Below, one piece after another: positions 1 through 47,631 of a stretch of DNA of 64,000 bases. The notes beneath the pieces were generated by a model, which worked only from the letters and a program-made list of their open reading frames with translations, did no database searches and was not told the DNA's origin. Within the stretch, counting starts at the first letter, position 1. Each line of letters begins with the position of its first letter. The stretch lies in sequence record OR983333.1; one strand, written 5' to 3'. The DNA comes from Escherichia phage 1-6af. The position numbers and the translations under genes were made by a program.

Positions 1-885
1 GTAGGCTTGATGATGAATGCTGCACAGAACCGTCTCCGTATGGTATGTCGTAACATTGCTCACAATGGTATGGTTGAATTGATGCGTGGTATTTACAATC
101 TTATCAGAGAAAATGGTGAAGTTCCTATCGAGGTACAAACCCCTCGTGGTATGATTCAGGTAAATCCTAAACAATTACCAGCTCGTCACAACCTTCAAGT
201 TGTTGTAGCTATCTCTCCTAACGAGAAAGCAGAACGTGCACAGAAACTGATTAGCTTGAAACAGCTGATTGCAGCAGATGCACAGTTAGCACCTCTCTTT
301 GGTTTGGAGCAAGACCGTTACATGACTGCACAGATCTTTGAGTTGATGGGTATTAAGGACACTCATAAATACCTTCTGCCTCTGGAACAGTATCAGCCTC
401 CAGAACCTTCTCCGATGGAAATCCTCCAGCTCGAGATGACTAAAGCACAGGTTGAGAACGTACAGGCTTCTTCTCAGAAGATGATTGCTGATGCATTCGA
501 CCAACGTGAACGTACTACATTCGAACAGCAGAAAGCTGCGGATGAATTAAGTCTGCGTCAGGAAGAGTTGCAGTTCAAGCAAGAAAATGCAGCAGATGCA
601 ATGACTCTGGAAAACCGTAAAGAAGATAACAATGCTACTCTGGAACAAGCTAAGCACAAGTTAGCTCTTATGCAACAGCAGGTCCGTCAGTATGAATCTG
701 TACTGAAAGAATTGCAGATGGTTATGTCTCATCAGGTAGACCAAGAGAAGATTGTTCAGCAAGCTCGTGTTCAGGACAAAACTTTGGAACTCCAAAAGAA
801 AGAAGTTAATGTAACTAAGAAAGAGCAACAAGCTTCTCTCAAAGATTCACGGATTCCAGGCAAACGTCTTGGAAGTAAAAACTAA
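1..885 (+). CDS. portal (head-tail connector) protein, C-terminal part; gene starts upstream of window
   Basis: Frame open from nt 1; coiled-coil Q/E/K-rich C-terminus; sits immediately upstream of scaffold and capsid genes (T7-like order). Confidence 0.45.
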   Translation, partial: VGLMMNAAQNRLRMVCRNIAHNGMVELMRGIYNLIRENGEVPIEVQTPRGMIQVNPKQLPARHNLQVVVAISPNEKAERAQKLISLKQLIAADAQLAPLFGLEQDRYMTAQIFELMGIKDTHKYLLPLEQYQPPEPSPMEILQLEMTKAQVENVQASSQKMIADAFDQRERTTFEQQKAADELSLRQEELQFKQENAADAMTLENRKEDNNATLEQAKHKLALMQQQVRQYESVLKELQMVMSHQVDQEKIVQQARVQDKTLELQKKEVNVTKKEQQASLKDSRIPGKRLGSKN

Positions 886-894
886 GGACGTCGA

Positions 895-1131
895 ATGAAC
901 ATTAGACATCAATTTAATAAAGAGCACGCCGCCGCTTTGGCGGCTCTCAACCTTAACGGCAGTCTTGACGCAGCATTAGAGGCATTGAAAGAAAGACTCA
1001 TGACAGAGATAGTTCAAACAGAACCTCATGAGAATAAGAAACGCGAAGATTGTTATCAAAAGTATAAAATGGTTGGTAGCTTAAAAGAGGTCATAAAAGC
1101 TGCTATCAATAGTGCAGGAGATGTTTCATAA
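895..1131 (+). CDS. hypothetical small protein (78 aa)
   Basis: ORF between portal and scaffold genes, same strand, tight spacing. Confidence 0.35.
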   Translation: MNIRHQFNKEHAAALAALNLNGSLDAALEALKERLMTEIVQTEPHENKKREDCYQKYKMVGSLKEVIKAAINSAGDVS

Positions 1132-2207
1132 TGCCACAAGATAATTATATTGACCCGAACGATTTTAAATCTTTCCTCCAACTGGATGACCTGAAAGGTT
1201 CTTTCAAAGAAGAACTCGGTCGATTAGAATCTGAACAAGAACCAGAAGTGGACATTGACGATGAGTTCCCGGAAAAAGACGGTGACGATTTCGACTTTGA
1301 TACCGACCTTCTCGGTGAAAGCGATGAGCTTAAGTTCGAAGATGAAGATGGTTGGGAAGATCGTGAAGAGGAAGGCGAAGTCGAAGAAGATGAAGATGAA
1401 TCCTCTGAAGCAGAAGAACAAGAGGAAGAAGATTCAAGCGATGCAGAGTATGAAGATGATTCTGCTGACGGTGAAGGTGAAGTCTTTGATGTAGACTACG
1501 AAACCGTTATCACCCTTCCTGATGGACGTGAGATGACTATTGAAGAACTTTCTAATGGCTATCTTACTGGTGCTGATATGACAGAACGAGAGACTACTCT
1601 TCAGCGTCATATGGAAGCATTCGAGGAACGTGTAGTAGGTTTGAAGGATGTATTAGAACTAGCGTCTTTAGAAGCAGACCGAGTAATTGAAGATTATAAC
1701 GGTTTTGATTGGGACAAGCTTGCAGTAGAAGATCCTCAAGCATATGTTGAAAACAAACGTTTCCTAGAGAAGTACACAGCTCGCCGTCAACAGCTTGAAC
1801 AGGCTCAGGTCCGTATTAAGCAGGAAGCAGCAGCTAAAGAGCAGGAAGCTTTCCAAGCCAAGAGTATTGAATGTGTTAATATTCTGAAACGTGAGATTCC
1901 AAATTGGGATGAAAACTTATATCAAAACTTAATGCAATACGCAATTGACTTAGGTGCTACTGAAGAAGAAGTATTGAAGGAAAACCGTCCGTCTATTTTC
2001 CTAGCTCTCCATAAAGCATACCAATTTGATAAAGGTAAGCAACAGGTGATGGCTAAGATTAAACGTCCCGGTGCTCCACGCAAGGTTGTGAAGTCTGATG
2101 CTGCAAAGTCTCGCACTTCCAATAAGCCCGACAACGCTAAGGTTGCCAAGGCATTCGCAGAGGGTCGCGTTAGTCACGAAGACGCATTCAAATTCCTCGT
2201 AGATTAA
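1131..2207 (+). CDS. scaffolding protein (acidic)
   Basis: Extremely acidic D/E-rich N-terminal half, helical C-terminal half, directly upstream of capsid gene. Confidence 0.5.
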   Translation: MPQDNYIDPNDFKSFLQLDDLKGSFKEELGRLESEQEPEVDIDDEFPEKDGDDFDFDTDLLGESDELKFEDEDGWEDREEEGEVEEDEDESSEAEEQEEEDSSDAEYEDDSADGEGEVFDVDYETVITLPDGREMTIEELSNGYLTGADMTERETTLQRHMEAFEERVVGLKDVLELASLEADRVIEDYNGFDWDKLAVEDPQAYVENKRFLEKYTARRQQLEQAQVRIKQEAAAKEQEAFQAKSIECVNILKREIPNWDENLYQNLMQYAIDLGATEEEVLKENRPSIFLALHKAYQFDKGKQQVMAKIKRPGAPRKVVKSDAAKSRTSNKPDNAKVAKAFAEGRVSHEDAFKFLVD

Positions 2208-2248
2208 TCGACAAATTAAATTATTAATAGTATAGGAGCTAACATAAC

Positions 2249-3307
2249 ATGGCTAATCCAACTTTATTTGTATCGTATGACCAGAATGGTAAAAAACTTT
2301 CTTTTGCTAACTGGATTTCTGTTCTGTCCCCTCAGGATACCCCGTTCGTATCTATGACCGGTAAAGAGTCTATCAACCAGACTATCTTTAGCTGGCAGAC
2401 CGATGCACTGGCAAGCGTTGACGGTAATAACGCACACGTCGAAGGCTCTCGTGCTGAAGACGGCGAAATGAAACCGACCGTTATCAAATCTAACGTTACT
2501 CAGATTCTGCGTAAGGTTGTTCGTGTTTCTGATACTGCTAACACCACCGCTAACTACGGTCGTGGTCGTGAACTGATGTATCAGCTGGAGAAGAAAGGTA
2601 AAGAGATCAAGCGTGACCTCGAGAAAATCCTTCTGTCCGGTCAGGCTCGTACCGACGTTCTGGCTGACCAGTATCTGACTAACTCTGCAACTGATCCTGC
2701 TGTTGTTGGTCTGAATGACACCCATGCAGCTCGTAAGACTGGTGCATTCCAGTTCCTGTGTGCTCACGGTGGTTTGTCTGGTGGCGTTGTTGACAAGACT
2801 AAGAATGGTCCTGCTGACCCGGATACTGGTGCAGTAACTGTTAAAGTTGCACAGAATGCTTCTAACCCGACCACTAACATTGGTTTTGATGAAGCTGATA
2901 TCTTTGATATGACTCTGCAACTGTATACCGCTGGTTCTGAAGCAGATATCATCATGATTAACCCGGCTCATGCTAAGATCTTCGCTGGTCTGCAAGAAAA
3001 TACTCAGGGTTCACGTAAGCGTATCTTTGAGAACACCAAGCAGTTCATCTACGAAGTTAACAGCATCACTGACCCGCTGGGCCAAAGCTACAAAATCATC
3101 GTTAACCGTTGGATGCCTACCGATGCAGTTTACTTCTTCCGTAGCGCTGACTGGACTCAGATGGTTCTGCGTGCTCCGAAACGTACTGAACTGGCTAAAG
3201 ACGGTTCTTACGAGAAGTGGATGATTGAAATGGAAGTTGGTCTGCGTCACCGCAACCCGTATGCTTCCGGCGTTCTGTTCACTGCTGCGGGAAAGGTGGC
3301 GGCGTAA
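2249..3307 (+). CDS. major capsid protein
   Basis: 352 aa ORF after scaffold; strong RBS (taggag); highly biased codon use; followed by frameshift Ig extension and strong terminator. Confidence 0.7.
   Translation: MANPTLFVSYDQNGKKLSFANWISVLSPQDTPFVSMTGKESINQTIFSWQTDALASVDGNNAHVEGSRAEDGEMKPTVIKSNVTQILRKVVRVSDTANTTANYGRGRELMYQLEKKGKEIKRDLEKILLSGQARTDVLADQYLTNSATDPAVVGLNDTHAARKTGAFQFLCAHGGLSGGVVDKTKNGPADPDTGAVTVKVAQNASNPTTNIGFDEADIFDMTLQLYTAGSEADIIMINPAHAKIFAGLQENTQGSRKRIFENTKQFIYEVNSITDPLGQSYKIIVNRWMPTDAVYFFRSADWTQMVLRAPKRTELAKDGSYEKWMIEMEVGLRHRNPYASGVLFTAAGKVAA
3289..3295 (+). other. -1 programmed ribosomal frameshift slippery heptamer G_GGA_AAG
   Basis: X_XXY_YYZ heptamer in the capsid zero frame, 4 codons before the capsid stop; -1 frame stays open into the Ig-like ORF. 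Confidence 0.55.
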
Positions 3308-3831
3308 CAGTAGACAGTGTGACTGTTAGCCCTGCGTCTTTAGCAAGTCTAGAGACAGGGGCTACTCGGCAGTTCACTGCAAGCGCGGAGAAAAGTGATG
3401 GTTCTACCGAAACAACTGGCTTTACTTGGTCAGTGACAGGAGGTGGTTCTATCACTCAGTCGGGTTTGTATACTGCTCCGAGTGCGTCTCAATCCACTGA
3501 TGTATCCATTACTGCAACTTTAGAAGGTGTTTCTGGTACGGCAACCATTTCCGAAATTGTTGCTCCTGCTCCTACTATTGTAGCTAAGGGTCCAATTACG
3601 GGTAAAACTGGTGGTTCCTCCACTAATTTCACTACCATGTTTACTGTAACTAATTCTATTGCTGATGATTACACACTTGTTGTAACTCCCGCAGAAGCTG
3701 GTACAATAAGTGCTAATAATTCGTTAAAATTAGATGCTGCTGCAAGTGGCGAAGTTACTGTTCAAGCAAGTTTGACAGCCAACCCGTCTATCAATGCAAC
3801 ATGCACTTTTACTGGTGTAACACCTGCTTAA
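3295..3831 (+). CDS. Ig-like (Big_2-type) C-terminal extension of capsid, reached by -1 frameshift (capsid-Ig fusion)
   Basis: -1 frame has no stop from 3295 to 3831; no RBS before the GTG at 3319; Thr/Ser/Gly-rich beta-type domain with Ig-like pattern. Confidence 0.55.
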   Translation, partial: GGGVTVDSVTVSPASLASLETGATRQFTASAEKSDGSTETTGFTWSVTGGGSITQSGLYTAPSASQSTDVSITATLEGVSGTATISEIVAPAPTIVAKGPITGKTGGSSTNFTTMFTVTNSIADDYTLVVTPAEAGTISANNSLKLDAAASGEVTVQASLTANPSINATCTFTGVTPA

Positions 3832-3838
3832 AATCAGA

Positions 3839-3862
3839 CCCTGCCTTCGGGCGGGGTTTTTT
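3839..3862 (+). terminator. rho-independent terminator after capsid module
   Basis: ccctgcc-ttcg-ggcgggg hairpin followed by T6. Confidence 0.75.
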
Positions 3863-3890
3863 CGTTTTAAGACCTATACAAGCCAGTGTG

Positions 3891-3899
3891 TAATGTATA
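3891..3899 (+). promoter_or_regulatory. TAATGTATA promoter-like motif (preceded by TAAGACCTA, 14 nt spacer)
   Basis: Identical bipartite arrangement recurs at 20181-20211; located 34 nt upstream of the next start codon. Confidence 0.5.
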
Positions 3900-3932
3900 T
3901 TCTTTGTCTACATATAACAAGGAGGACAACCT

Positions 3933-4445
3933 ATGGCAATGCCAGATTTCAGAGAAGCTTTTACCTATGATCCAAATACAGGGCATCTTTTCTGGTCTAT
4001 GAGTAACATCTTTAATAAGCAGAAAGGACAACGTGCCGGGTGTATTGGCGACAGAGGTTATCGTAAAGTGACTTTTAAAAAGAAATCATATTTAGAGCAT
4101 AGGGTCATAGCTGAACTCTTTCTTCCTAAGGTAGAAGGGAAGGACTGTGTCAACCATAAGAATGGAATAAAAGACGATAACAGGATTGAGAATCTAGAGT
4201 GGTGTACTCAACAAGAAAATTGTACACATGCTTTTGAAACAGGCCTCTCAACACCTAGGAGTCTTGAGGATAACCCTAATTCCAAACTCACTAAAGAGCA
4301 AGTTCTCTTTTGTTTGGAGAACTACAAACCGAGAGATAGAGAGTTTGGAGCTAGAGCCTTAGCTAGAAAGTTTGGGGTCTCTAAAAGCACAATATCTCTC
4401 ATTACTAAAGGCGTAAACTGGAAGGAGGTTTATTATGATGCCTGA
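3933..4445 (+). CDS. HNH homing endonuclease (HNH_3-like with C-terminal HTH)
   Basis: YDPNTGHLFW...GYRKV...HRVIA...VNHKNG...DNRIENLEW motif pattern; free-standing between structural genes. Confidence 0.8.
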   Translation: MAMPDFREAFTYDPNTGHLFWSMSNIFNKQKGQRAGCIGDRGYRKVTFKKKSYLEHRVIAELFLPKVEGKDCVNHKNGIKDDNRIENLEWCTQQENCTHAFETGLSTPRSLEDNPNSKLTKEQVLFCLENYKPRDREFGARALARKFGVSKSTISLITKGVNWKEVYYDA

Positions 4446-5184
4446 CGTCCAATATCCCATCAATACCTATGGGTGGCTAAAGAAAGCCGTGGCCCTCTGG
4501 GCAGATAGGGACGATGACGAATTTGTTAATCAAATTCCAAACTTTATTAATTTTGCAGAGAAAGAGATTTATCGCAACTTACGTATCCCTCCTCTGGAAA
4601 AGGAAGTGTATCTGAGTATCAAGAATGGTATAGCATTCATCCCACCGGACTACTTGCAAGCTCAATGGATAATGAGAGCTAAAGATGGAGCAATATTCCA
4701 AGTAACTTCCCCAGAAGAGATAAGCTATCGTAAACAGCATGGCACAATTAACCCCTCTCACTGGAATAATCAACCTGTTAATTTTGCTCGTTTCGGAAGT
4801 CGTTTCTTGTTCTATCCACTGATTGATGCTGATACCCCTGTTTACCCTGAAGATGGAAGTCCTGCTATTCCAGCAGAGAACTCTGTAATTCTAAGCTATT
4901 ATGCAGATCCTCCGGAGTTTCACGCAGACGAAGATACTAGTGCAATACTTACGATTGCTCCAGAACTTCTTCTATACTTTACCCTTAGGCATGCATGTCT
5001 TTTTGTTCAGGATGATAACGGTGTTCAAAAATGGTCTGCGTTAGGTAAGGCTATTCTTGATGAGATGGTTGAGCAAGATAAGAAACAGGAGTACTCAGGT
5101 TCTCCTATTGCGATACCCAACAACATGACCAGACTTCAGAGTAGCCTGCCAGATATTTATGGAATACGTACCTCTAGAGTATAA
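4435..5184 (+). CDS. hypothetical virion protein (possible adaptor or tail tubular protein)
   Basis: Position in structural block; overlapping start with upstream gene. Confidence 0.3.
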   Translation: MMPDVQYPINTYGWLKKAVALWADRDDDEFVNQIPNFINFAEKEIYRNLRIPPLEKEVYLSIKNGIAFIPPDYLQAQWIMRAKDGAIFQVTSPEEISYRKQHGTINPSHWNNQPVNFARFGSRFLFYPLIDADTPVYPEDGSPAIPAENSVILSYYADPPEFHADEDTSAILTIAPELLLYFTLRHACLFVQDDNGVQKWSALGKAILDEMVEQDKKQEYSGSPIAIPNNMTRLQSSLPDIYGIRTSRV

Positions 5185-5193
5185 GGAGATTTT

Positions 5194-5742
5194 ATGATCA
5201 GTTACAACAACTCAGCACCTAATGCAGTTAATAATGTAGGTCAGTTTGGTGCTACAGAAGGCTCTATCGGTGCTTACAAATCAGCAGCTGAATACGCAGC
5301 TGATTCCAAGTATTGGGCGATGCTTTCTCAAAAGAACTACAACAGCATTGATGAAATTCTTAAGGAAGTAGAAAGACTCTATGCAGAAGGTAGTTTATTA
5401 AAAGAAGATATTGAACAACTCAAATTTGATTTTGAAAACCAAAACCAAATGCTTCTTGGTCTTATTCAGCAAACGGTCGAAGCTGTTGACAACACTAATA
5501 CTGCTATTGGCGAAGCTAATGCAGCAACAGATCGAGCCAACCAAGCAGTGCAAGATGTTCTTACTCAATTAGATAAGGTTTCTAATATGTCGGTTGTTGC
5601 CACAACCCTTCCTCCGGGAGCACCCGCAACTGGGAGTTTTGATAATAGTACAGGTGTTTTCTCCTTTGGTATCCCTGAAGGCCAGCCCGGTAAAGATGGG
5701 AGGATGGAACAGATGGTACAATCTCTGATATTGGGGATGTAG
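5194..5742 (+). CDS. tail fibre protein, N-terminal segment (frame-broken from downstream ORF)
   Basis: RBS aaggag; ends in the start of a Gly-X-Y collagen-like run that continues in the -1 frame. Confidence 0.45.
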   Translation: MISYNNSAPNAVNNVGQFGATEGSIGAYKSAAEYAADSKYWAMLSQKNYNSIDEILKEVERLYAEGSLLKEDIEQLKFDFENQNQMLLGLIQQTVEAVDNTNTAIGEANAATDRANQAVQDVLTQLDKVSNMSVVATTLPPGAPATGSFDNSTGVFSFGIPEGQPGKDGRMEQMVQSLILGM

Positions 5743-5780
5743 CTATAAGCACTCCTGTAGCTGATGATTATGGGTTCTTT

Positions 5781-8700
5781 GTGGACAAAGACAATGGTGG
5801 TTTGTATCGAACTCCAATGAGTGAGATTGCTAAGCTTGTTCCAGCAGTTGTTAGTTTCAATGGTCGTACTGGTCCTGTTATTCCGGCTGCTGGAGACTAC
5901 ACAGTAAGTCAAGTTACTGGCGCAGCTGCTTCTGGCGTTAACAACGATATTAACCAGATTCGTGGGTTGACTACTGCCCTATCTGTAGCTCAAGGTGGTA
6001 CGGGTGGTAAGACACCGTACGAAGCTAGAACCAACCTCCAGCTGGAAAGGTTCACCCAGAATGATGCTAACACTACTTCAATGAAAGCTGGTGGTGATGG
6101 AAGGATTCGTCTTACAGTTAGCAAGTCCGCTGAAGGCTCTGGGTGGGGTTGCTTTAATGACGACACTGGAGCATACATTCCTCTCGGAGTAGGTCAAGGT
6201 GGTACGGGGGCAACAACGGTGGTCAGTGCCAGAGAGAATCTCGGTGTCAACCGCGTAATACAAGGTGGTAGTTATAGCGATTTCCTTACAGCCAACGGTT
6301 CCAACCGCTTGCGTATCCAGGATAACGGTGCATGGGGCAGCAGCACTGGAACAGGTTGGATACCGTTAGGGGTTGGACAGGGTGGCACTGGGGCAACAAC
6401 AGCAGCTGGAGCTCGAGCTAACCTAAACTTGAATAGGTTTGGGGAAGTAGGTTCTGAGACTCAAGTGTTTTCTCCTAACGGTAGTAAGAAAATCATTATT
6501 ACTAATGACCGATGGGGAGCCTATGACATTGCTGCTTCCAAATACCTCCCTTTAGGTATTGATCAAGGTGGTACTGGGGCAAATACTGCTGATGCAGCGC
6601 GTATGTCTCTTGTTGCTGCTAAAAGTGGGGCTAACTCTGATATAACCTCAATGACTAACAAGGTTACTTTCACGCAGTCTCCAGTGATTCCTGATGCAGT
6701 AGCTAACAACGAACCAGTAGCTCTCGGTCAACTGTCTACTGAAACTGCATTACTTGAAACGAAGATTAACGAAGCTAAAGATGCTGCTGCTGCTGCTAAT
6801 ACTAATGCGGATAGTCGTGTACCAACAGCTCAGCTTTCTAATACGTCTAACGTAGCTCAAGGTGATGCACTAATTGGGGTCAAGGCTCCTTTCGCTGGCG
6901 CTGCGGCTCGTACTCAGCATGACATAAATGCACAATTCAGTAGCATTCTTGACTTTCTTGGTGATAAATACAACGGCACTACGGATGCTGCAAGTTCCTT
7001 TATTTCTGCCAACACACTTCTACCTAAAAGTCGTGAGATCATTGTTCCAAGCGGGACATACCTCCTCAATAGTAATGTAGAATGTTACGGTCGCCGTTTC
7101 GTATTTGAAGAACCAGTGACATTTACTGGTGCTGGTAAATTCTATGGTGCTATTGTAAATCGCATTATGTCGGATGGGACAACTAAAGTTTCCCAATGGG
7201 CTAAGCCAGGAACTACTGAGAGGATGACCACATCTGCTGTTTTCGGTGATAACGGAGTGACGTCAACCGGAATTCAGATTGGTGGGGCTGTGCCATATAA
7301 CGGTGCTGATGGTATTAGAATGTTTACCGATGGTAGTTCTGGGTGGTTAGGTGTTCGTGCATCTAAATGGCCTCACCCTACAGAAATGGCGATATATCCA
7401 AGTTCTAAATCCGGGTCATGTCAGACAATCTCAGGCAGCAATGCTGTAAAAATCCTGTCTGGTGCTAGCATTACATCTGAAGCGATCGGTAAACCTATTG
7501 CTATCTATGATGCACTTTATACTGTAGCATCCGTAACAGCAGATGGTTTTACTGTTAAAAATATCAATGGGTCACCTGTTACTTGGGGATCAAATGCAAC
7601 CCACTCGTACAGCTTGTGTTACTACCACGGCAGTGGTGTATGCAGTGTATCCGGCACTACTGTAACCCGCATTAGTGGTGATCCGTTTGTGATTCCCGAC
7701 GCATCAGTACCTCAGACAATGACTATTAATGGTGTCGACTACCGCGTAGTGGCTTTTACAGACCCTCAGCATGTTACCCTTAGTTCTGCTCCGGGGGATT
7801 CAGCATCAACAGAATATAAATTCTGGGGTACAGTTAACAACCTCAACAGTGCACTTCGGGTTCATCGTATCAATGATGCTGGCTTTGAGGAAAATATTAG
7901 TCTCATTGCCAATAATAGTGGATATTACGCATTGCACGCTGCTGCTAGTAACCCAGCGAATGAGCAGTATCCACTCTACATTGGATCTGGTTGGGAAGAT
8001 AACGGGCAGATGCGAAGAAGCATTATCTCCGCAGCCAATGGAGATGTAACCCTCGGTGGTAACTACGGGAACGGGCCGTTATATGTACCCTATAGCCAAA
8101 CCTCTAACCCACAAATCATGCTGGACAACAGGAATGGCAACGCCACCGTTACAGTCTCTGGTGGATCTACACCGGATGCGTCGTTAACTATTAAGTCTAA
8201 AGGTGCAGGTAAGGTTGTGTTCCACTCCGAGGTAGGTGTTAACGCCGCGATGTATCCATATATAGATAACATCTATTCGTGTGGTAAGTCTGGGAATAGG
8301 TGGTCACAGATATGGGCATCGAACGCTACTATCCAGACTTCTGATGGGACGACAAAAACCGAAGTTCAAGGATCCAATCTATCTACAGACTTTATTCTGG
8401 GCCTAAACCCTGTTTCTTACAAAAACATTGTTGGTGGGAATGTTGTAGAAGAGATTGAAGATGGTGTAGAGGAGATTGAACGTCAGGTGGTAGAAAAGGT
8501 TGTTTCAACTGAAGAAGTCCACGAACGTGTTGTTGATGGAGATGAAGTCTATTACGTCCGTAAGTTCGTTGACAAGGAAGTAGAGCGTCCAGTGTTCCAT
8601 GAGGTTGATCTGCGTGATGAGCTAGGTAATGTCATTGGAACAATCAAAACACCGTTGATGGAGAAAGTAACCGTTCCTAAAACTCGCCAAGTTATTACGG

Positions 8701-16479: not shown

Positions 16480-17532
16480 ATGTCTTTATTTGGAAAATCA
16501 GCTTCTAGCAAAATCACAGTGGCCCCTTCCTCTCAGGTTGATGCCCTGCTGAAGCAGATTGTTGCTAATGCTCAGAATATGCAGAACAACGATCCGGGAT
16601 TCATCTCCCAACAACTGGCTGGGTTTAATGGCAACCAACAAGGTGCTCTGAATAACTTAGCAGCTTCTACTACTCAGAAGCAATTGGCTGATATGTACAC
16701 ACCTCGTACACAGCAAGGGTTGGACCAATTAAACTCTCTTGCACAGCAGTATCAGAATATTGTCAACAGTGGTGGGGTTACAGCTGATGGTGTTAATAAT
16801 TTTAGCAAAGGTTTGAACAATTCAGCTTTAGCTCAAGCTACTAGCAAAGCAGCTTCCAACGTATCTCTCGGAAATGGTTCTGACTCAGGTTCTCTTCGTA
16901 GAGCTGCTGCTCAGGGTGCTGCTTTGAATGGTGCTAATACAAATCTATCTCGAACTATCAATGGAAAGAATATGGGAATTAATGCCCTTCAACAAGACCA
17001 AAACTTCCAGAGAGGCTTACTTGGTGCTCAGTTGGGGTTAGCTGGACAGAACCTTAATCTTGGTGCACAAGGTGTTCAGGCAACCCAACAAGCTATCCAG
17101 AATCAACTCTTGGCTGGTAATTTACAACAGCGACAAGATCAAGCTCAAGCTGACATTAATTGGCAGAATGCTATTGGCTCTAGGCAGTATGGGTGGAATC
17201 AGCTTAACAACCAGCTTAATGTATTAAACAGTGTAAGCCCAATGGCTGGGTACACAATTAAGAATGCCGCTCCGGGTATTAACACAGGACAGCAGATTCT
17301 CGGTGCTGGTATCACTGGATTAGGTATTGCAGGTCGTATGGGTGCTTTCTCTCCTAACCAACAGACTCAGAATGCTTGGAGTTCCTATAACAACTCAGGT
17401 GGGCAATCTGGAATGGCTGGTCCTATGATTGGAGGTTCTAATCTTTCTCAACAGAAAGGTCAGTCTAACTGGTTATCCACAGCAGGTAGTAATATCTTAG
17501 GTGGTGTCTTAGGGGCATTCGGAGCAAACTAA
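16480..17532 (+). CDS. Q/N/G-rich internal virion protein
   Basis: Low-complexity Gln/Asn/Gly-rich 350 aa ORF; paralogous to next gene. Confidence 0.45.
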   Translation: MSLFGKSASSKITVAPSSQVDALLKQIVANAQNMQNNDPGFISQQLAGFNGNQQGALNNLAASTTQKQLADMYTPRTQQGLDQLNSLAQQYQNIVNSGGVTADGVNNFSKGLNNSALAQATSKAASNVSLGNGSDSGSLRRAAAQGAALNGANTNLSRTINGKNMGINALQQDQNFQRGLLGAQLGLAGQNLNLGAQGVQATQQAIQNQLLAGNLQQRQDQAQADINWQNAIGSRQYGWNQLNNQLNVLNSVSPMAGYTIKNAAPGINTGQQILGAGITGLGIAGRMGAFSPNQQTQNAWSSYNNSGGQSGMAGPMIGGSNLSQQKGQSNWLSTAGSNILGGVLGAFGAN

Positions 17533-17544
17533 AGGAGATTTAAT

Positions 17545-18513
17545 ATGGCTTTATTTGGAGGAGGGAATAGTAAAACTACTTCCCAAATGATTCGCCCTGA
17601 ATACATTCAACAGTATATTGACCAGCTTAATAAGCAGATTGGTAATACCAGTTCAGGGGATTATGTTTATCGAGATAATGTAGGGTTTAATAACAACCAG
17701 ACGGAGGCACTTAATAACTTAGCACAATCTGGTGCTCTAGGAACTCTCTCACAGCAATATATGGATGCAGCAGGTCAAGGGTTAGGGTATCTGGATAATG
17801 CCTATAAAGGTTATCAGAGCCTCTCTGGACAAGGTGGGATTACTGGAGAACAGATCGGTGCTCTCGCTGGTCAACTGTATGATGACGATGCTGTGCAAGC
17901 AGCTATTACAGCTAATAATGAGCAGGTTCAACAGAACTTGGCACGTAATGCGCTTCCTCAGTTAGCTCAACAGTTTGCTGGTCAACAAGGCTCAGGTGCT
18001 CGTATGGCTAAGTCTTTTGCCCAAGGTGATGCTCTGAATCAGATGCAAGGGCAAGCAACAGACATTACCAATAGTGCCTATAACTCTGCTATTAGCCAAG
18101 CTGAAAGTATCCTCTCTGGTAATAGGCAGAATCAGGCAGCTGCTCTCTCAGGTCTTTCTAATATTGGTTCTAACCTTTCTAACCTAGGTCAACAGGGTGC
18201 TAATTTGTCTCAACAGCAAATGATGAATCAATGGAATGCAGGGTTGCAGCAACAACAGCAACAACAGAATGAATATGATAATGCCTACCAGAATGCTCAG
18301 AATGCAGCTAATTGGGGATGGCAGGATATCAACAACCAACTCGGTGCAGCAGGTGTACTTAACGGCGCTCTCGGACAAACTACAACTACTAAAACATCTG
18401 GTGGCAAAGGTGGTTTCCTTGGTGGAGCTATGAGTGGTGCAGCAGCAGGTTCTTCCTTTGGGCCTTGGGGTGCATTAGCTGGGGGTGTAATCGGTGGGTT
18501 GGCTAGTACTTAA
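17545..18513 (+). CDS. Q/N/G-rich internal virion protein (paralogue of 16480..17532)
   Basis: Shared M.LFG N-terminus, GFN.NQ..ALNNLA block and Gly-rich C-terminus. Confidence 0.45.
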   Translation: MALFGGGNSKTTSQMIRPEYIQQYIDQLNKQIGNTSSGDYVYRDNVGFNNNQTEALNNLAQSGALGTLSQQYMDAAGQGLGYLDNAYKGYQSLSGQGGITGEQIGALAGQLYDDDAVQAAITANNEQVQQNLARNALPQLAQQFAGQQGSGARMAKSFAQGDALNQMQGQATDITNSAYNSAISQAESILSGNRQNQAAALSGLSNIGSNLSNLGQQGANLSQQQMMNQWNAGLQQQQQQQNEYDNAYQNAQNAANWGWQDINNQLGAAGVLNGALGQTTTTKTSGGKGGFLGGAMSGAAAGSSFGPWGALAGGVIGGLAST

Positions 18514-18526
18514 TTAGGAGATAAAT

Positions 18527-20182
18527 ATGCAACAGACAACTTACGCTCAGGTTAGAAGTCGTGACCCGAGAAATACTTTCTATGGTGTTAATCCAGGAGC
18601 GGCTTCGGCCTCTCCTTATATGGCTAGACCGACTCAGACAGCAGACATTTCTATGTACCAACGTCCTGCTGTACCTTCATCTCTTGCGGGTCTTGTCTCT
18701 CAGGCAGAAGAAGATCAGAATGCTATGATTAATCCGGGATTCCAGCAACGTCTTATGGAACAGCAGAATCAAGGAACCCCTACCAGTCTTCAGGGTATTG
18801 ATATTGGAGCACCAGCCCCTGTAGCGGCTAATCCTAACCTATCCACTGATCAAGGTTTACAAGATGCAGGGCTTATGCCTAGTGACCCTCTTCCGGTAAC
18901 ACCTCCCCCTAAACCACTAGAAGCTGGTCCTATGGAGTTTACTCCTTCTCAGGTGGAACAGGCACAAGGTGTGATTAACACTCTTGCTCAAGGACAAGAC
19001 ACTGGTGATGGAATGGCTGCTGCTACTCGTGCTAAAGATCAGGAACGTGTTAACAATGATATCTTGCAAGTTGCTAAAGCTAAAGACCCTTCAGAAGCTT
19101 GGAACAAACTACAGAAAGAACCGTTCTATCAGAACTCTAGTTTCTACACAGGTTTGATGGGTGTAGGTCTTTCAATCATGTCAGGTAAGTCTCCTATCGA
19201 AGCTTTCCAGATTGGTCAGGGAATGGCTAATCAAGATGAGACTAAGAAGCAACTGGAAGCTAACCGTGATGCCCTGATTGAACAAGGTTTCTCTCAAGAC
19301 TCGATCGCAGCTGCTATTGCTAACGGAGACCCTTCTCTGCTGAAGATGAAAGCTGTAGACCCTGCTCAGAAAGAAGCGTTGTATGCTGCTCGTGAAGAAC
19401 GACAGAATGCTGAATGGGATAGACGTCAACAGATTCAAGAGCAGACTATGCGTGAGCGTGCTGAGGAAACTCGTCGAGCCGCTGAAGAAAGAGCTAATAT
19501 GAACTTTGAACGTCAGAAAGAGTTGATTGGGTATCGTGATAAAGTTAAGGCTGAACGTGCTGAACAAGCTGCTCAGAGTTTTAACTTTAACCCGAAAGAA
19601 GTTCGTCTTGCTCAGAATACAGCTGAAGGTACGGTTGCTAAGCAGTGGGCAGAGAAAGGTGGTCTGTTTAACCAGTCTAACAAAGACTTGGATTTGGCTG
19701 ATAAGGCTGTTAAGGATAAAGACTATCAGACAGCTCGTTCTGCTTACATGCAGGCTATCATGAACTCCGCAAGGGCTGAAATCGGTGCTACTCGTTCTCT
19801 TACCGAAGAAGATTTGGGGCACTTTGCAGAAGACCCATCAATCTTCATTCGTGTTGGCAACAAGTTTGCACTTAAATCTGGATGGCGTCCTACTGATTCT
19901 GCTCTTGCTTATGCTCGTAAGCAAGCTAACGTTGGTCACACCTCTGCAATGAAAGGTGTTGCTGATGCTAAGAGAGCTACGATTGAAGCTTACATCGGTT
20001 CTGGTATGGATAAGAAGAGAGCTACTGCATTGGTTAACCGTGCAATCCCTTCTGGCGGTTTCTACGATCCTCTAGGTGTTTTCTCTGAACAAGCGGAAGA
20101 AGCAGTTGGTGGTGCAGCAACCAATCCTAAGCTTAATGGTGCTTTATCAGCTGTCGAAGACACTAGCTGGTTCACGCAATAA
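18527..20182 (+). CDS. internal virion protein (551 aa)
   Basis: Position; Pro/Gln-rich N-terminus, charged helical C-terminus. Confidence 0.45.
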   Translation: MQQTTYAQVRSRDPRNTFYGVNPGAASASPYMARPTQTADISMYQRPAVPSSLAGLVSQAEEDQNAMINPGFQQRLMEQQNQGTPTSLQGIDIGAPAPVAANPNLSTDQGLQDAGLMPSDPLPVTPPPKPLEAGPMEFTPSQVEQAQGVINTLAQGQDTGDGMAAATRAKDQERVNNDILQVAKAKDPSEAWNKLQKEPFYQNSSFYTGLMGVGLSIMSGKSPIEAFQIGQGMANQDETKKQLEANRDALIEQGFSQDSIAAAIANGDPSLLKMKAVDPAQKEALYAAREERQNAEWDRRQQIQEQTMRERAEETRRAAEERANMNFERQKELIGYRDKVKAERAEQAAQSFNFNPKEVRLAQNTAEGTVAKQWAEKGGLFNQSNKDLDLADKAVKDKDYQTARSAYMQAIMNSARAEIGATRSLTEEDLGHFAEDPSIFIRVGNKFALKSGWRPTDSALAYARKQANVGHTSAMKGVADAKRATIEAYIGSGMDKKRATALVNRAIPSGGFYDPLGVFSEQAEEAVGGAATNPKLNGALSAVEDTSWFTQ

Positions 20183-40360: not shown

Positions 40361-41017
40361 TTAATTCTCCAAAGTTTTCTTCAGAGCTGCCCACGAGATT
40401 GGGTAGAGCTTAGCCATCTCTTCATCTACGGATTTAGCAAACACTCGAACTTCATATTGAGCGTGAGAGGATAGTCGCTGACGGCACAACTCAAACCAGC
40501 CATACAAAGAACCAGTCCACACCCACTCAGTGATCATCCCCTGAGGAAGAACAAATCGAGCTTGCTCTGGTGCAATAAATTCAATCAACTTATCATATGC
40601 TGCTAAAGAAGCTTCATATGCATCATTAATCAACATTAATGCTTCAGCTCGCTCTCCGTCGATGAGTTGAATCCCTGAACCTGCATGGAGGTCCGAAGGT
40701 CTCGCAAAAATCTCTTTAGGGATGAAGACTTCAACTGCTCCATCTTTATACCGCCGGGACATTTCGTTCCACGAGAATCCAACCTGATGCTTTCCCAGCT
40801 GTCTCGCAATTGCGATAGGTGCTTTGCATCGGAAACTGACTTGCGGGTGTCGGAATGGAGTACAGTGTTTTTCCCGTGCAAGGAAGTTGATAAGTTTTGT
40901 GTCTCTCTCATTTAAGTCACCTTCTCGAACAACACCGAAAGATACTCTAGCTGCATTGACTACAGATTTGTCACTTCCCATAGCTTCGATTAATGTTGCT
41001 TGTAGTTGTTCATTCAT
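40361..41017 (-). CDS. thyX: flavin-dependent thymidylate synthase (ThyX-like)
   Basis: ARVSFGV...LINFLAREKHCTPFRH ... NEMSRRY blocks typical of ThyX. Confidence 0.6.
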   Translation of the reverse strand: MNEQLQATLIEAMGSDKSVVNAARVSFGVVREGDLNERDTKLINFLAREKHCTPFRHPQVSFRCKAPIAIARQLGKHQVGFSWNEMSRRYKDGAVEVFIPKEIFARPSDLHAGSGIQLIDGERAEALMLINDAYEASLAAYDKLIEFIAPEQARFVLPQGMITEWVWTGSLYGWFELCRQRLSSHAQYEVRVFAKSVDEEMAKLYPISWAALKKTLEN

Positions 41018-41032
41018 CCGTGAATATCCTTA

Positions 41033-41308
41033 TTATTTATTGCTCAGGGCTGTATCCAAAAAAGCTTTCAGGTTTGCTTCAGTCTGCATACCAGAGAGGC
41101 TGTAGTGTGCACCACTGTTACGGTCAGGCACAACGAAAGCAGGGATGCTTCGTACACCATACTTAACAGCTTGCTCACGACCATCACCTTCAAGGATGTT
41201 AATCTCTTCCACTTCTACATCAAACTCCTTAACAACCTTCTCAAAGGTAGGAGCCATTGCTTTACATGGAGCACACTGATCACTATAAAACTTAATTACT
41301 TTAGACAT
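41033..41308 (-). CDS. thioredoxin
   Basis: CAPC active site in thioredoxin-length protein. Confidence 0.75.
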   Translation of the reverse strand: MSKVIKFYSDQCAPCKAMAPTFEKVVKEFDVEVEEINILEGDGREQAVKYGVRSIPAFVVPDRNSGAHYSLSGMQTEANLKAFLDTALSNK

Positions 41309-42971: not shown

Positions 42972-43442
42972 CTAGGAGTTTTGCCTCTTCAAGAGTTTTA
43001 CTCCATACACAGACTCACGTTTACCATCTTTTTGAACAGATACACAGAACGTCCCGCCCTTCTCTTGGTAGACATTCTTAACTCCTAGCTTGTTATCAAC
43101 CCTTGTCTTAGCATTCTGACTGTTCTCAGAGTGAGAGCACTTTCTCAGGTTAGTTTCTTCTAGGTTTTCTCTGTTACCATCGGCATGATCTATTTGATAT
43201 TCATCCGATAAATCCTCACCAGTATAAAGAACAAAAAGAATCCTATGATTATGGACACGAACTCCTCCTAAGGGAATTTGATAATACCCATCTTTTGTGA
43301 GCTTGCCATCAGGTTTACCTACTATATCATTAGCAAACTTACTAGGCTTCCTTTTCCAAGAAAGCCCTGAAGGGGATGACATGTCTATATTAAAGAGATC
43401 AACTACTTCATCATAGCATATCAGCATGATTTGTTCCACCAA
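42972..43442 (-). CDS. HNH homing endonuclease
   Basis: GVRVHNHRILF...QIDHADGNRENLEETNLRKCSHSEN HNH_3-type motif. Confidence 0.7.
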   Translation of the reverse strand: MVEQIMLICYDEVVDLFNIDMSSPSGLSWKRKPSKFANDIVGKPDGKLTKDGYYQIPLGGVRVHNHRILFVLYTGEDLSDEYQIDHADGNRENLEETNLRKCSHSENSQNAKTRVDNKLGVKNVYQEKGGTFCVSVQKDGKRESVYGVKLLKRQNS

Positions 43443-43965
43443 AAGCTTTTGTTGGCCCTTGTTGGTTATTGTATGAACCTTTAGTTGCGTAGCTATCCTC
43501 TTCCGAGGATGAGTGTTTAAAGAATTCCATCTGACCGATACGCATTCCCGGCTTGATCAGCAGAGAGTGGTGCTGTAGGACGTTCTTGAATTCCATAGTT
43601 AACTGACTGCCATGCCAACCACCGTCAGCATGACCAGCGTGCATGTGCTCTAAGAAGCAACGACCGACAGTAGATCGTAGCATGAAGTCACAGCTAATGT
43701 TGTCTGGAAGGTTGAATGTCTCCACTGTATGAGCTAAGAAACACTCACCCGGTTTGATCACCAACCCTTCCTCTGGAATCATAACCTCATTGAAATTAGG
43801 GGATTCTTTAGCAGAGATATCAACAACCCCATTAGCTGCACCTTCCATCAGAACACGATCTCCAATACGAACATCAATGCTGGAGGAATTAACAGCTGAG
43901 TGTGGTGCATCAATAACACCATCATCAATTAATTTATGTAACTCTGGGCTTCCTAGTAAACTCAT
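43411..43965 (-). CDS. dcd: dCTP deaminase (dUTPase superfamily)
   Basis: N-terminal ...IDVRIGD and C-terminal G.QLTMEF.N....L.KPGMRIGQMEF as in Dcd. Confidence 0.7.
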   Translation of the reverse strand: MSLLGSPELHKLIDDGVIDAPHSAVNSSSIDVRIGDRVLMEGAANGVVDISAKESPNFNEVMIPEEGLVIKPGECFLAHTVETFNLPDNISCDFMLRSTVGRCFLEHMHAGHADGGWHGSQLTMEFKNVLQHHSLLIKPGMRIGQMEFFKHSSSEEDSYATKGSYNNQQGPTKAFGGTNHADML

Positions 43966-43974
43966 TCTTATTCC

Positions 43975-45288
43975 TTAGTTATTTGTTTCCATGTCAAAAG
44001 AGATTCCACGACCCGCTTCATCGGCAAACCGAACTGTACGGGTTTGAGGTTCTAATACTTCAGGGTTGTTGGCAATAAAGCGATCAGCGAGATTATCTAC
44101 CACATCTTGGGCCACACCTTCATCAGTCCACACAGCCCTAACAGGTGCGTTGATATCACCAACAGCAAAACCCTGACCAGAGAACTGGTGACGGCTAACA
44201 GTCAAGCCGTTTGATCGACCACGAGAAGGACTAGACATCCATTGCTCCATAGAATCACTTGTAATACCAAGAGCTTCTTCAAAAGATGTTCTACGAGAAG
44301 AGCTTAGATTTCGTGCTTCATTTGCTCGACGTCTTGTAGGGGCTACAAACACCCCTTCAATTGCATTGTGTCGGTTAGGTTCGTCTTCTCTACCAAGCAG
44401 ATCACCACCTGTATTAGTTGTTAAATTTGTCAACCCTTCAGACCAATACGCATGAATCTGACCGGAACCGTGAAGACTAGACATAATCTGAATCTCTTCA
44501 TAAGGGATTCCAAAAAATCGACTCATGTCTCGGTTAACACAATATAGAGCACTTGTTGTATCCTCAATAAGAGCAACCTGACCTATTTCATTAACAAGAT
44601 GACTGACTGGCTGAGGTGTAGGAAGGTATCGAGTTTGGGCCATATATTGATATGCAACAGATGGGGCTGAGAATCTTAACACTTGTGAATTAGGCCACTT
44701 TTTGTGAACGTATCTGATTTCACGACTAGAAACAACCACAGGGCAAGGGGCGGTCATAGCTAAATACCCATGAGGGGTCATGAATAAGTTGTCAAGAGTC
44801 ATCGCACCACGGCACATCATAGGAAAGTTATCCAATACCTCTTCGATAGAAGTAGGATAATTAAACATGAATTGGATACGAACCCCATTCCACTGAAACT
44901 CAATAATATCAGTGAATGTTAATTGAGAACCCCCAGCATAGGATTCGTTTGTAGCTTCAGCAAGAAGAGATGAATACTCAATATCTTGAGACTCAAGCCA
45001 CTCTTTAACGTTACTTTCAACTTCTCGTCCGAGATCTTGCCACTGCTCATGACGGATGAAAGTATTTCGAGTTCTTGGGGCCTGTCCTCTGACAATAAAG
45101 ATATCAATGTCATGCGGAGCTGTGTTATTAAGCACAGCATCACGAATAGCCCCACCAGTGATGATAGGACAAATACAGTCTGGAATCAAGTTGTTGTTAA
45201 TCAGCTGTTCAATGAAGTGACGACCAACAGTGATATCCGGTTGTTGAGCAACCTTATCTTCAATTCGGTTAATCGGGATAACAATCAT
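43975..45288 (-). CDS. CCA-adding/poly(A)-polymerase-type nucleotidyltransferase with long C-terminal extension
   Basis: ITGGAIRDAVL...HDIDIFI head-domain signature; start taken at ATG 45288 abutting exo gene stop. Confidence 0.5.
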   Translation of the reverse strand: MIVIPINRIEDKVAQQPDITVGRHFIEQLINNNLIPDCICPIITGGAIRDAVLNNTAPHDIDIFIVRGQAPRTRNTFIRHEQWQDLGREVESNVKEWLESQDIEYSSLLAEATNESYAGGSQLTFTDIIEFQWNGVRIQFMFNYPTSIEEVLDNFPMMCRGAMTLDNLFMTPHGYLAMTAPCPVVVSSREIRYVHKKWPNSQVLRFSAPSVAYQYMAQTRYLPTPQPVSHLVNEIGQVALIEDTTSALYCVNRDMSRFFGIPYEEIQIMSSLHGSGQIHAYWSEGLTNLTTNTGGDLLGREDEPNRHNAIEGVFVAPTRRRANEARNLSSSRRTSFEEALGITSDSMEQWMSSPSRGRSNGLTVSRHQFSGQGFAVGDINAPVRAVWTDEGVAQDVVDNLADRFIANNPEVLEPQTRTVRFADEAGRGISFDMETNN

Positions 45289-45289
45289 T

Positions 45290-45847
45290 TTACATTTTCC
45301 AATATAATGAAGGTGGGTCGTAAGGGTCAAATCCTGTGATTTCACACAAGAAAAGATAAACCTTAACAGTTAAGTTAACGTCCTGTTCACAATAAGTAAA
45401 CATATCTTCAGTGAAAGCATCCCATGCTTCCTCTTGCTCACCATAATCGCCCTTAAGTTCTCCTAAGAACTCACCCCACTGCTTCAAACCATGACCCCTT
45501 GGGCCACGTCTAGGGTCGCCTTTCGGATACTCAGGACTGTCACCAATACGGTCAGGTTTAAGATATCGACTAAGACATAAAGTGTCAAAGACGTTAAAAT
45601 TATATTTAATCAAAGAGGGATACATCTTCTTCAGAGCAGGTAAGTCGAAGTCAATAATATTATGACCCACGAGCACATCTGCTTCTGTCAGTTTACGAAT
45701 CCCGTCTTCGATTTGGTGAGGCCGATAGCCCCACCTTTCACCAGTTTCAACATCGAAGATATAAATACACCATACTTTAGTTATGTCATCGTACAGTGCA
45801 TTACTCTCGATATCGAATGCAAACACTTTCTTCTTTTTCTTTACCAC
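45290..45847 (-). CDS. DNA polymerase 3'-5' exonuclease domain (T7 gp5 N-terminal-like), separate gene
   Basis: [44 protein letters not shown] blocks align to T7 gp5 residues 1-190. Confidence 0.75.
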
Positions 45848-47631
45848 GGTGAAGCTCCATCTGCTTGGTTGACGAGAGAAGCTGCATCCTCTCCATTAGT
45901 TAAAACGAATGGATTATCTTCATCAACTTCAAAGTCTTCCCTCTCTACAAGTCTACCGGTTTCACTGATATACTTAGTATAACAGACACCTGTCTGACCG
46001 TAGTTGCGTTCTTTCAGTAATCGAATGACTGAGAGGTTCTTAGCTAAGCCGTCAGCTTGCTTGTCACGCTCAAAACCAATGATACACTGACACCAACGCA
46101 TAAGAGAACGAGAGCCAGTGAACTGCACTTCACGTACCTGTCCACCTTCTTCATGAGGAGCACCACCTGCCGGAGCATTAAGGTGAGATAACACGAAAGC
46201 GGTAAAGTCTAGTTCTTTACACATACCAGCAAGCTCGGAAGCAATCTTACTGATTTCAGTGTTAATCTCTGAAGGGGTTAAATGAGACACCAGAGCGGTA
46301 ATGTTATCAAGGATGATGAACTTACACTGGTTTTCAACTACCCAGAAACGAATACACTGTTTAATGTCTTCCCACTCATTCTGTCCGAAGTTGTCATACA
46401 AGAAGAATTTGTCTGCATAACGAAGTGCTTCATTACGCAAATCCTCCTCATCATATTCAACATCGGGTCGGTGGAAAGGAATTGATGCTGACTTACCAGC
46501 AATGTTCTTAACAGACATGCCTACCTTCTCTTCCAAGAAGAAGCCACCTCCATTAAAACCATGCTCTAAGCACAGATGAGCAACCAGCTCGTGAGCAATG
46601 AGTGTTTTACCACTACCAACCCCACCACCAATTGCTACCACCTCTCCCCATCGAATACCGAAGGTCATCTCATTCAGAGTCTTCCACGGATATGGGATAC
46701 CCCACTCCGCTTTCTTCAGAGCATCATCAAGGCAATCAAAGATTGTTACAGCTCCAGCAGGAGATTCCCGCTTTGCTGAATACTTGAGAATGTTGAATAA
46801 CTCTTGACCACGACCAGACAGAAGCATATCATTCGCATCCTTAATCTCTTTCTCCACACCGTTGTATGGGAAGGTTCCTTTAGGGATACGAGCAAACTTG
46901 ACATGAGGGAATAAAGAACGACCTTTTGTTAAAGCTATCTCACCTGCATCATCGTTGTCCATGCAGAGCACAACCTCCTCAAAACCATTTACGAAGTCTC
47001 GATTACGAGACAACACAGAAGAGATTGAACCTGCACCGAACGGTAAAGAAACACAGGCTGGTTTAATGTTTGTTGCATTTGTAAAAGCTGTAAGGACATG
47101 GAAACCAGACATACAAGATAGCGGGTCTTCAAAAATGAAGAGCTTCTTGTTGTACACATCTCCACGTTGAGCTTGTGCCATACCAAATAAATCTGCTTCT
47201 TTCACACTGCCGACATAATAAAACTTCTTATTATCTAGCAGCTTAACCTCGTAACCAACAATGTTTCCATCACGTTCGCGAGGAAAGAAGTAGCTGTCTG
47301 GAGTCTGACCGTCAGTTTGACTGAGGCCAATACGACACTCAAAACGCTCTGATACAGCTTTTGGGATTAAACGTCGAGTAAGCTCTCCCTGAGGAAGCTC
47401 TAAGCAATCATCTAAGACTTCTCTCAACTCTTCAGGGGATAACTCTTTTCTCTCGTTTGGAGTAGGTGTAGTGCCCTTTTCGAACACTTCGTAATTCCCA
47501 CAACGGTTACAACTTCCCCACTCCTCACCTGTCTCTTCGTTACGGAAGAGAATCATGTGGTTGTGGGTTTTATCACGACCATGAGAGATACATTCCTTAC
47601 AACCTGTGTCTCCCAAAATGATCTTTGACAT
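45841..47631 (-). CDS. primase-helicase (T7 gp4-like)
   Basis: N-terminal Cys4 zinc finger, TOPRIM-like region, Walker [10 protein letters not shown]. Confidence 0.8.

Follow-up and report, generated by a model that had tools for sequence, protein, structure and literature searches.

A phage-specific nucleotidyltransferase with a class II-like head holds a fixed place in the replication operon of phiEco32-like phages and is remotely related to Gad2

The 64,000-nucleotide (nt) stretch of Escherichia phage 1-6af analyzed here (OR983333.1; "the window") carries on its minus strand, at positions 43975 to 45288, the gene for a nucleotidyltransferase (NTase) of 437 amino acids (aa). The protein was found to be a phage-specific member of the polymerase-beta superfamily whose fold is closest to the head domain found in class II CCA-adding enzymes and poly(A) polymerases, and it has a conserved site of the class II type for binding nucleotide and metal. 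Its gene is part of the core of the replication operon, lying at a fixed position in every relative examined. By profile comparison, its nearest relatives are the polymerase-adjacent NTases of Autographiviridae (phrog_1614) and the anti-Gabija protein Gad2. The sequence evidence indicates a very divergent relative of the CCA-adding fold, which would not be expected to function as a tRNA CCA-adding enzyme.

The features of the gene and of its conserved domain are as follows, with model confidence given as the predicted local distance difference test score (pLDDT) of AlphaFold2 (AF2).

43975 to 45288, minus strand: NTase gene, 437 aa plus stop codon, ortholog of phiEco32 gp73 (phi32_73) and SU10 gp74
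44674 to 45288, minus strand: conserved NTase domain, residues 1 to 205 (class II-like head plus first neck-like helix), AF2 pLDDT mostly 80 to 95
45139 to 45156, minus strand: GGAIRD, residues 45 to 50, first part of motif A; G45, G46, R49, and D50 invariant
45097 to 45111, minus strand: DIDIF, residues 60 to 64, with the motif A catalytic aspartates D60 and D62; D60, D62, and F64 invariant
44866 to 44877, minus strand: I-Q-F-M strand, residues 138 to 141; Q139 invariant, Q139 and M141 conserved family-wide
44692 to 44724, minus strand: helix R189-E-I-R-Y193-V-H-K-K197-W-P199; Y193 and K197 invariant, position 190 always acidic

The class II motif A, GGxxRD followed by DxD, is present in full, and its residues G45, G46, R49, D50, D60, and D62 are invariant in 25/25 sequences of an alignment of diverse family representatives. 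F64, Y117, I128, Q139, P156, Y193, and K197 are invariant in the same alignment, and the AF2 model places a helix at residues 188 to 197. A preliminary description of this DNA, made from its letters alone, had recognized a GGAIRD...DIDIF head-domain signature; read at residues 45 to 50 and 60 to 64, this signature is upheld as that of a polymerase-beta-type class II head.

Matches to Pfam PF01743 (PolyA_pol head) were found for the window protein (residues 43 to 119; 19.1 bits; E value, 0.0018; under the gathering cutoff of 23) and, at E values up to 0.1, for 17 of the 25 family members; the scores examined among these, 15.4 to 20.6 bits, lie below the cutoff. A PDB search with the family profile placed CCA-adding enzymes first (E value, 0.0015), and a PDB sequence search with the single window protein returned noise only. 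From the weak PF01743 matches across the family, together with the top PDB matches of the profile, it follows that the head fold is real. Among solved structures, the nearest are those of CCA-adding enzymes and of E. coli poly(A) polymerase I (PAP I) (PDB 3aql, 3h37, 1ou5, and 1miv), at scores that are low for true family members and with just 160 to 184 residues aligned.

These class II enzymes clearly outscore cyclic-nucleotide and alarmone synthases, which argues against an enzyme that makes a small nucleotide-derived product, such as a dinucleotide or a modified (deoxy)nucleoside triphosphate, to feed metabolism or to decoy or inhibit nucleotide-sensing defences. Such a product, possibly one of Gad2 too, is an unlikely explanation; a partner effector or receptor gene is not evident in the operon, and neither PADLOC nor NCBIfam gave a match for the window protein. 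With both of these searches empty, a known defence-system NTase of the CD-NTase or AbiEii/MenT type is unsupported as well.

Residues 1 to 205 are the sole part of the protein matched by distant relatives in an exhaustive HMMER search across 1.84 billion representative proteins. This search recovered 31 representatives of the NTase family with lengths of 89 to 482 aa, most of them 274 to 320 aa, and all were matched via residues 1 to ~210; word-indexed homolog searches retrieved close relatives only. The family is small and is confined to phage genomes and phage-sized contigs. Neither exonuclease-NTase nor NTase-polymerase fusions occur among the 31 representatives.

Several hallmarks of class II enzymes are missing from this family. 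In the 25-member alignment, motif B, RRD(F/L)TIN, is absent; the matching segment of the window protein is L-D-N-F-P156-M-M-C-R-G, with an invariant proline and no RRD, and the family consensus at the place of the class II RRDFTIN is F-P-x-x-C. Also absent is motif D, EDxxR, which serves as the protein template in the selection of C and A; its sole candidate is the helix R-[DE]-x-x-Y-x-x-K-K-[WYF]-P. If the presumed positional equivalence holds, the acidic residue is retained there and the position of the templating arginine is taken by an invariant tyrosine. We infer from the alignment of Gad2 with Cca and PcnB that this helix, R189 to P199, sits in the place of class II motif D with a different sequence. 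The set of neck, body, and tail domains with which class II enzymes bind tRNA or other RNA is lacking, with no body or tail in the AF2 model or the structure matches, and hhalign of the family profile against E. coli Cca, PcnB, and a two-sequence profile of both aligned motif A alone (14%, 5%, and 25%, respectively). In contrast to the class II CCA-adding enzymes and PAP I, the NTase is acidic, phage only, and encoded in a DNA replication operon, and it has a long inserted helix at residues 80 to 100. The Streptococcus pneumoniae protein NP_344798.1 (PDB 2la3), a stand-alone CCA-enzyme head-domain protein, resembles it at the level of fold only, being bacterial and having no replication context. 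The earlier assignment to the CCA-adding/poly(A)-polymerase type can thus be kept for the class II head, and the rest of it fails on the missing RRD, EDxxR, and body and tail domains and on a Pfam score below the cutoff.

A function at RNA 3' ends, whether in CCA repair or addition, in the maturation of a tRNA-like RNA, or in poly(A)-like tailing that hastens the decay of RNA, would agree with the class II motif A and with the nearest solved structures. Overproduced PAP I is toxic. Toxicity in E. coli was also reported for Gp22 of Klebsiella phage fHe-Kpn01 (PMC7291057), which we equate with SU503_19, a phrog_1614 member in the closest relative of that phage, by size (182 aa) and position alone. 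A further point in favor of an RNA substrate is that the window holds a tRNA-like element without an encoded CCA (positions 61499 to 61577, minus strand). Against these points stand the missing motifs and domains, the sub-cutoff Pfam score, the acidic protein, and a gene locked in a DNA replication operon. In addition, the canonical tRNA-Arg(TCT) of phiEco32 encodes its own CCA, and a related NTase is found in phiAS7, a phage that carries no tRNA genes. We regard an RNA 3'-end enzyme as a rather improbable reading that still deserves some weight.

The narrower proposals of the preliminary description, repair of tRNA 3' ends damaged by host nucleases or action on tRNA-like elements at 59.8 and 61.5 kb, were not borne out. 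ARAGORN found zero tRNAs in the 64-kb window, a permissive Rfam scan of 59.0 to 62.5 kb returned nothing at 59.8 kb, and the element at 61.5 kb is marginal and lacks a D-arm. The self-encoded CCA of the phiEco32 tRNA, the phiAS7 NTase without a tRNA, and the fixed place of the gene among DNA replication genes also count against a tRNA role. tRNA repair is therefore unlikely, and nothing links the enzyme to tRNAs.

The element at 61499 to 61577 itself scores 29.7 bits against the Rfam tRNA model, with a cutoff of 29, and ARAGORN did not report it. An acceptor stem, a T-arm, and an anticodon arm with the loop CUUCUAA and the Arg anticodon UCU are present, its D-arm is replaced by 4 nt, and a 20-nt insertion in the variable region resembles a displaced D-arm (..AGUAAUUGGAGUA..). 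It occupies the site of the canonical tRNA-Arg(TCT) of phiEco32 and is common only to phages 1-6bf and Bas93 and, in part, Bas94.

The gene is not a discovery. Its annotation dates back to the genome papers of phiEco32 and SU10, by 2014 it bore the label NTase or that of a "class II CCA-adding enzyme domain," and phiEco32 gp73 carries the annotation "nucleotidyltransferase"; the existing label of a CCA-adding enzyme should not be trusted. The 2025 BASEL paper already singles out the NTase beside the replication genes (PMC11990801), and literature searches found no experimental work on the family. We placed the start at the conserved ATG at 45288 because all orthologs begin with MI.IP there; the mechanical open reading frame (ORF) opens upstream, at a GTG at 45345. 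The protein is ~90% identical to its phiEco32 counterpart and matches phrog_12715, the Kuravirus nucleotidyltransferase, over its full length (E value, 1.9e-248; protein residues 1 to 437 against profile positions 1 to 457). At the DNA level, the window is 100% identical to Escherichia phage FH3 over the region tested and ~94% identical to phiEco32-like Kuravirus phages (Gordonclarkvirinae). The coordinate offsets between the window and FH3 differ by 124 nt between the two sides of the FH3 record ends (window ~60780), as would be expected if the window ran past those ends with the terminal redundancy collapsed, or if it came from a near-identical genome such as that of phage 1-6af.

Beyond the enzyme domain, the protein was divided into the following parts.

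44476 to 44673, minus strand: helical subdomain, residues 206 to 271, AF2 pLDDT 77 to 91, with helices at 209 to 220, 247 to 259, and 263 to 270
44389 to 44475, minus strand: last helix and W282-S-E-G-L motif, residues 272 to 300; within-genus identity of 0.97 at residues 281 to 300
44095 to 44388, minus strand: lineage-specific tail, residues 301 to 398, pLDDT 23 to 40, probably disordered
43975 to 44094, minus strand: C-terminal segment, residues 399 to 437 plus stop codon, with a weak helix and hairpin, pLDDT 43 to 63, kept only within Kuravirus

The NTase thus consists of an enzyme domain of ~210 aa, a helical subdomain of ~70 aa that reaches to ~271 to 285, and a fast-evolving tail of ~150 aa. 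A novel C-terminal extension of ~300 aa had been described. A lineage-specific tail does exist, at about half the claimed length, and the remainder of those ~300 residues is no extension, since conservation reaches residue ~210, including Y193 and K197, and the helical subdomain continues to ~271 to 285. The same helical subdomain was found in the AF2 model of the Bas89-type ortholog, which has ~289 folded residues followed by an unrelated tail of 137 residues with pLDDT below 50. In the window protein, pLDDT is below 50 at residues 272 to 398, 413 to 423, and 430 to 437 and 50 to 63 in between, with values of 23 to 40 across residues 281 to 400. Structure prediction of the C-terminal region therefore yielded a mostly unstructured tail and not a novel folded domain. 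The tail, from ~286 to 290 to residue 437 (~150 aa), is probably disordered, as judged from models in which its alignment depth is shallow. No similarity to it was found beyond Kuravirus, either in the orthologs of two other genera or in the exhaustive search. Within Kuravirus, identity is 0.78 in the tail versus 0.92 in the enzyme domain, and an indel hot spot lies past residue 398. We weighed and dismissed a basic tail that binds RNA, as in PAP I, because most members have an acidic or neutral tail; that of the window protein is acidic.

At the border between the folded part and the tail, 12 family members carry a W-[ST]-x-G-L motif at a constant distance, compared with 2.5 expected from shuffled tails, and in the AF2 model of the Bas89-type ortholog the W-S-E-G-L region closes the folded core. 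Many of the short distant members (270 to 290 aa) terminate in [TS]-L (e.g., ETL, NTL, HTL, or NSL), and in the longer members W-[ST]-x-G-L lies equally far from the catalytic domain (residues 282 to 286 of the window protein; nt 44431 to 44445). To go by these patterns, W-[ST]-x-G-L and the terminal [TS]-L may represent a motif for docking, conserved from the terminus of the ancestral protein.

The genes around the NTase gene are those of a replication block.

45841 to 47631, minus strand: primase/helicase, first gene of the conserved four-gene block, named from the annotation of the phiEco32 ortholog and from DnaB_C Pfam matches in distant contigs
45290 to 45847, minus strand: 3'-5' exonuclease subunit of a T7-type DNA polymerase, the upstream partner (phrog_403, phrog_38876)
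43411 to 43965, minus strand: dCTP deaminase, downstream (phrog_1663), its ATG 9 nt past the NTase stop codon

A single nucleotide separates the stop codon of the exonuclease gene from the ATG of the NTase gene (junction, ...AAAATGTAAAATGATT), and promoter- or terminator-like matches in the NTase-flanking interval are no more frequent than in shuffled sequence. The order primase/helicase, exonuclease subunit, NTase, and dCTP deaminase is identical in phiEco32, in Bas89 and Bas87, which represent other lineages of Gordonclarkvirinae, and in a further Kuravirus contig. The same four genes in the same order were found in two metagenomic contigs of 87 to 101 kb, the NTases of which are only ~25% identical to the window protein.

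The close junction with the exonuclease gene would also fit a protein without catalysis that serves the split T7-type DNA polymerase as a scaffold or accessory subunit. The position aligned with the canonical third carboxylate is poorly conserved, and the low-confidence tail could serve as a tether. Opposed to this is the invariance of G45, G46, R49, D50, D60, D62, Y193, and K197 among members that are 25 to 40% identical. We consider a dead scaffold highly improbable because a protein that binds neither nucleotide nor metal would hardly show such invariance.

The T7-type DNA polymerase is split in this phage: the exonuclease subunit of 185 aa is encoded at 45290 to 45847 (minus strand) and the polymerase domain separately, ~8 kb away. 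In phiEco32 the polymerase domain is gp53 (phiEco32 record, 16991 to 18835). Thioredoxin is the processivity factor of T7 polymerase, and the window encodes a thioredoxin of its own at 41033 to 41308.

As to the dCTP deaminase, the BASEL authors noted that Gordonclarkvirinae are unusually resistant to restriction-modification systems, pointed to the conserved deaminase and NTase beside the replication genes, and suggested that these enzymes belong to a covalent DNA modification pathway (PMC11990801). The synteny on which this suggestion draws is confirmed here. The deaminase is, however, sufficiently explained by the supply of dTTP, because the phage also encodes the thymidylate synthase ThyX at 40361 to 41017; Thy1 matches occur in the distant contigs too. 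phrog_1614 relatives of the NTase occur in phages without an adjacent deaminase, and we know of no DNA hypermodification pathway that uses an NTase of the class II type. With these points against it, a role in DNA modification is quite unlikely. DNA containing dU in place of T was considered as an account of the deaminase and judged unnecessary, with ThyX present.

Two further observations concern the surroundings of the block. The dCTP deaminase gene is overlapped at its 3' end by an HNH homing endonuclease ORF (42972 to 43442, minus strand). This ORF is missing from phiEco32 and most Kuravirus genomes, the DNA match of which starts only at window position 43949, and because of this absence it probably entered the replication operon as a mobile insertion. 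A cluster for an amidoligase, a COOH-NH2 ligase, a glutamine amidotransferase, and a gamma-glutamyl cyclotransferase (phiEco32 record, 1 to 6438, gp77 to gp86; window counterpart upstream of ~47850) lies directly upstream of the block. This cluster is conserved even in the two distant contigs from metagenomes, as shown by GATase_6 and GGACT matches, and could likewise account for the restriction resistance of the phage group.

An association with T7-type polymerases also marks the first group of relatives. Fold matches in the viral structure library BFVD were to proteins of 186 to 215 aa from T7-like phages that belong to phrog_1614. The phrog_1614 profile matches residues 42 to 156 of the window protein in hmmscan (E value, 1.6e-7) and the NTase family profile in hhalign (91.8%; E value, 7.4e-7; 164 columns). 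In eight of nine contexts inspected, the phrog_1614 gene is zero to two genes from a T7-type DNA polymerase gene, and the ninth context is cut by the end of the record. The genes lie on either side of the polymerase gene, which they often overlap: in Melnykvirinae after DNA ligase and upstream of the polymerase, in Slopekvirinae immediately downstream of it, and in Molineuxvirinae and Maculvirus one or two genes downstream. The phrog_1614 proteins (phiAS7 gp03, SU503_19, Ahp1 gp19, and PM16 gp16) are acidic, like the NTase, and homologous to it over the whole enzyme domain of ~200 aa. In contrast to the NTase, they have only 180 to 200 aa, without the helical subdomain and without the tail. 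They have an invariant aspartate in an hDhLh strand and FDCNxN, whereas the NTase family has Q139 and FPxxC (F155-P156), a placement made by MAFFT in a stretch where the hhalign register is uncertain.

The second group is Gad2, the second anti-Gabija protein of SPbeta-like phages, which has been verified and has 400 aa with a predicted NTase domain (10.1101/2023.05.01.538930). A profile was built from nine homologs given in the supplement of that paper. Against it, hhalign aligned the NTase family with 92.0% over 103 columns (E value, 6.6e-7), pairing the GG, the DxD, the IQxM/IQLI strand, and the FPxxC/FDFTvC segment. Gad2 was in turn aligned to the head and neck of Cca/PcnB (75%, 174 columns), which places the NTase family, phrog_1614, and Gad2 in one class II-like assemblage. 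Like the window protein, Gad2 is a phage NTase of ~400 aa in which the enzyme domain at the N terminus is conserved and the C-terminal part varies, and the two share the motifs GG, DxD-F, IQ(L/F)(I/M), and F[DP]xx[CV]xG. They differ in that Gad2 has GGxITS where the NTase family has GGAVRD, and in that Gad2 belongs to an accessory anti-defence locus or to hypothetical genes of large myoviruses, whereas the NTase is a core gene of the replication operon. Escherichia phage 24-2-1 (79.5-kb record), which has a true Gad2 homolog, was rejected as a Kuravirus and is a partial Vequintavirinae scaffold. The BASEL defence panel was without Gabija. PF26128, "Gad2," was not listed for Bas89-type or distant members of the NTase family.

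SPbetaL7 Gad2 is toxic when expressed (10.1101/2023.05.01.538930). With the toxicity of fHe-Kpn01 Gp22, this could point to a takeover toxin that, in the manner of MenT, adds nucleotides to host tRNA acceptor ends and so blocks translation. The family has no sequence relation to MenT or AbiEii, to judge from the empty PADLOC search, a toxin would leave the replication operon context unexplained, and the phage needs host translation throughout infection. We hold a toxin of this kind to be very unlikely.

The explanation that we favor, and put forward as a tentative one, is replication-coupled nucleotidyl transfer on the 3' ends or intermediates of phage DNA, shielding it from end-sensing host nucleases. 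The enzyme would bind a nucleoside or deoxynucleoside triphosphate through GGAIRD, D60/D62, and the R/E..Y..KK helix and, next to the split T7-type polymerase, would transfer the nucleotide to the 3'-OH of genome ends or of replication intermediates of the phage DNA. DNA ends would thereby be hidden or altered with respect to host end-sensing nuclease-helicase defences, such as those of the Gabija type and RecBCD, and the tail might tether the enzyme to a partner protein. This protection of DNA ends is proposed because it fits the link to Gad2, the polymerase and ligase neighborhood, and the restriction resistance of Gordonclarkvirinae. Gabija has been described as a DNA-end-sensing system (PMC12904381). 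The anti-defence role raised in the preliminary description thus gains some support from the remote hhalign link to Gad2.

Several observations weigh against DNA end protection. The Gad2 hidden Markov model scores just 7 to 27 bits, a remote similarity, and the precomputed PF26128 matches on most of 44 Kuravirus clusters are marked weak. A gene neighborhood in small phage genomes is suggestive and not proof. Anti-defence genes are usually accessory and rarely core, and the NTase is a core gene. To our knowledge, the substrate of every characterized class II enzyme is RNA and not DNA. The N-terminal domain is acidic (median pI, 4.8), which is unusual for a protein that binds nucleic acid ends. 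For the third class II carboxylate, HMMER and hhalign set I103-E104-YSSLL opposite IEVTTFR and HEEYALAR; E104 is present in the window protein, and the position is acidic in only 16 of the 25 representatives. MAFFT sets the invariant Q139 opposite the invariant aspartate of the phrog_1614 proteins. Because of this glutamine and the poorly kept E104 position, canonical two-metal polymerization is not assured.

In a broader form, the proposal would make a Gad2-like NTase a built-in replication component of phiEco32-like phages, with small relatives serving likewise in hundreds of T7-like Autographiviridae, so that replicating DNA is hidden from end-sensing and restriction nucleases. The enzyme would then nucleotidylate DNA ends or intermediates or yield a nucleotide product at the fork. 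In this generality the idea is doubtful. If true, it would explain the restriction resistance of Gordonclarkvirinae and would reveal how Gad2 defeats Gabija.

The NTase family links two uncharacterized groups, the anti-Gabija protein Gad2 and the small polymerase-adjacent NTases of many T7-like phages, and the linkage to a T7-type polymerase has outlasted deep divergence and changes in gene order. If this linkage reflects function, tractable phages would offer a direct route to the action of Gad2-type enzymes and to the restriction resistance of Gordonclarkvirinae; Bas86 to Bas93 grow on an E. coli K-12 host that has been made to express the O16 O-antigen again. Such knowledge would be relevant to the choice and engineering of therapeutic coliphages.

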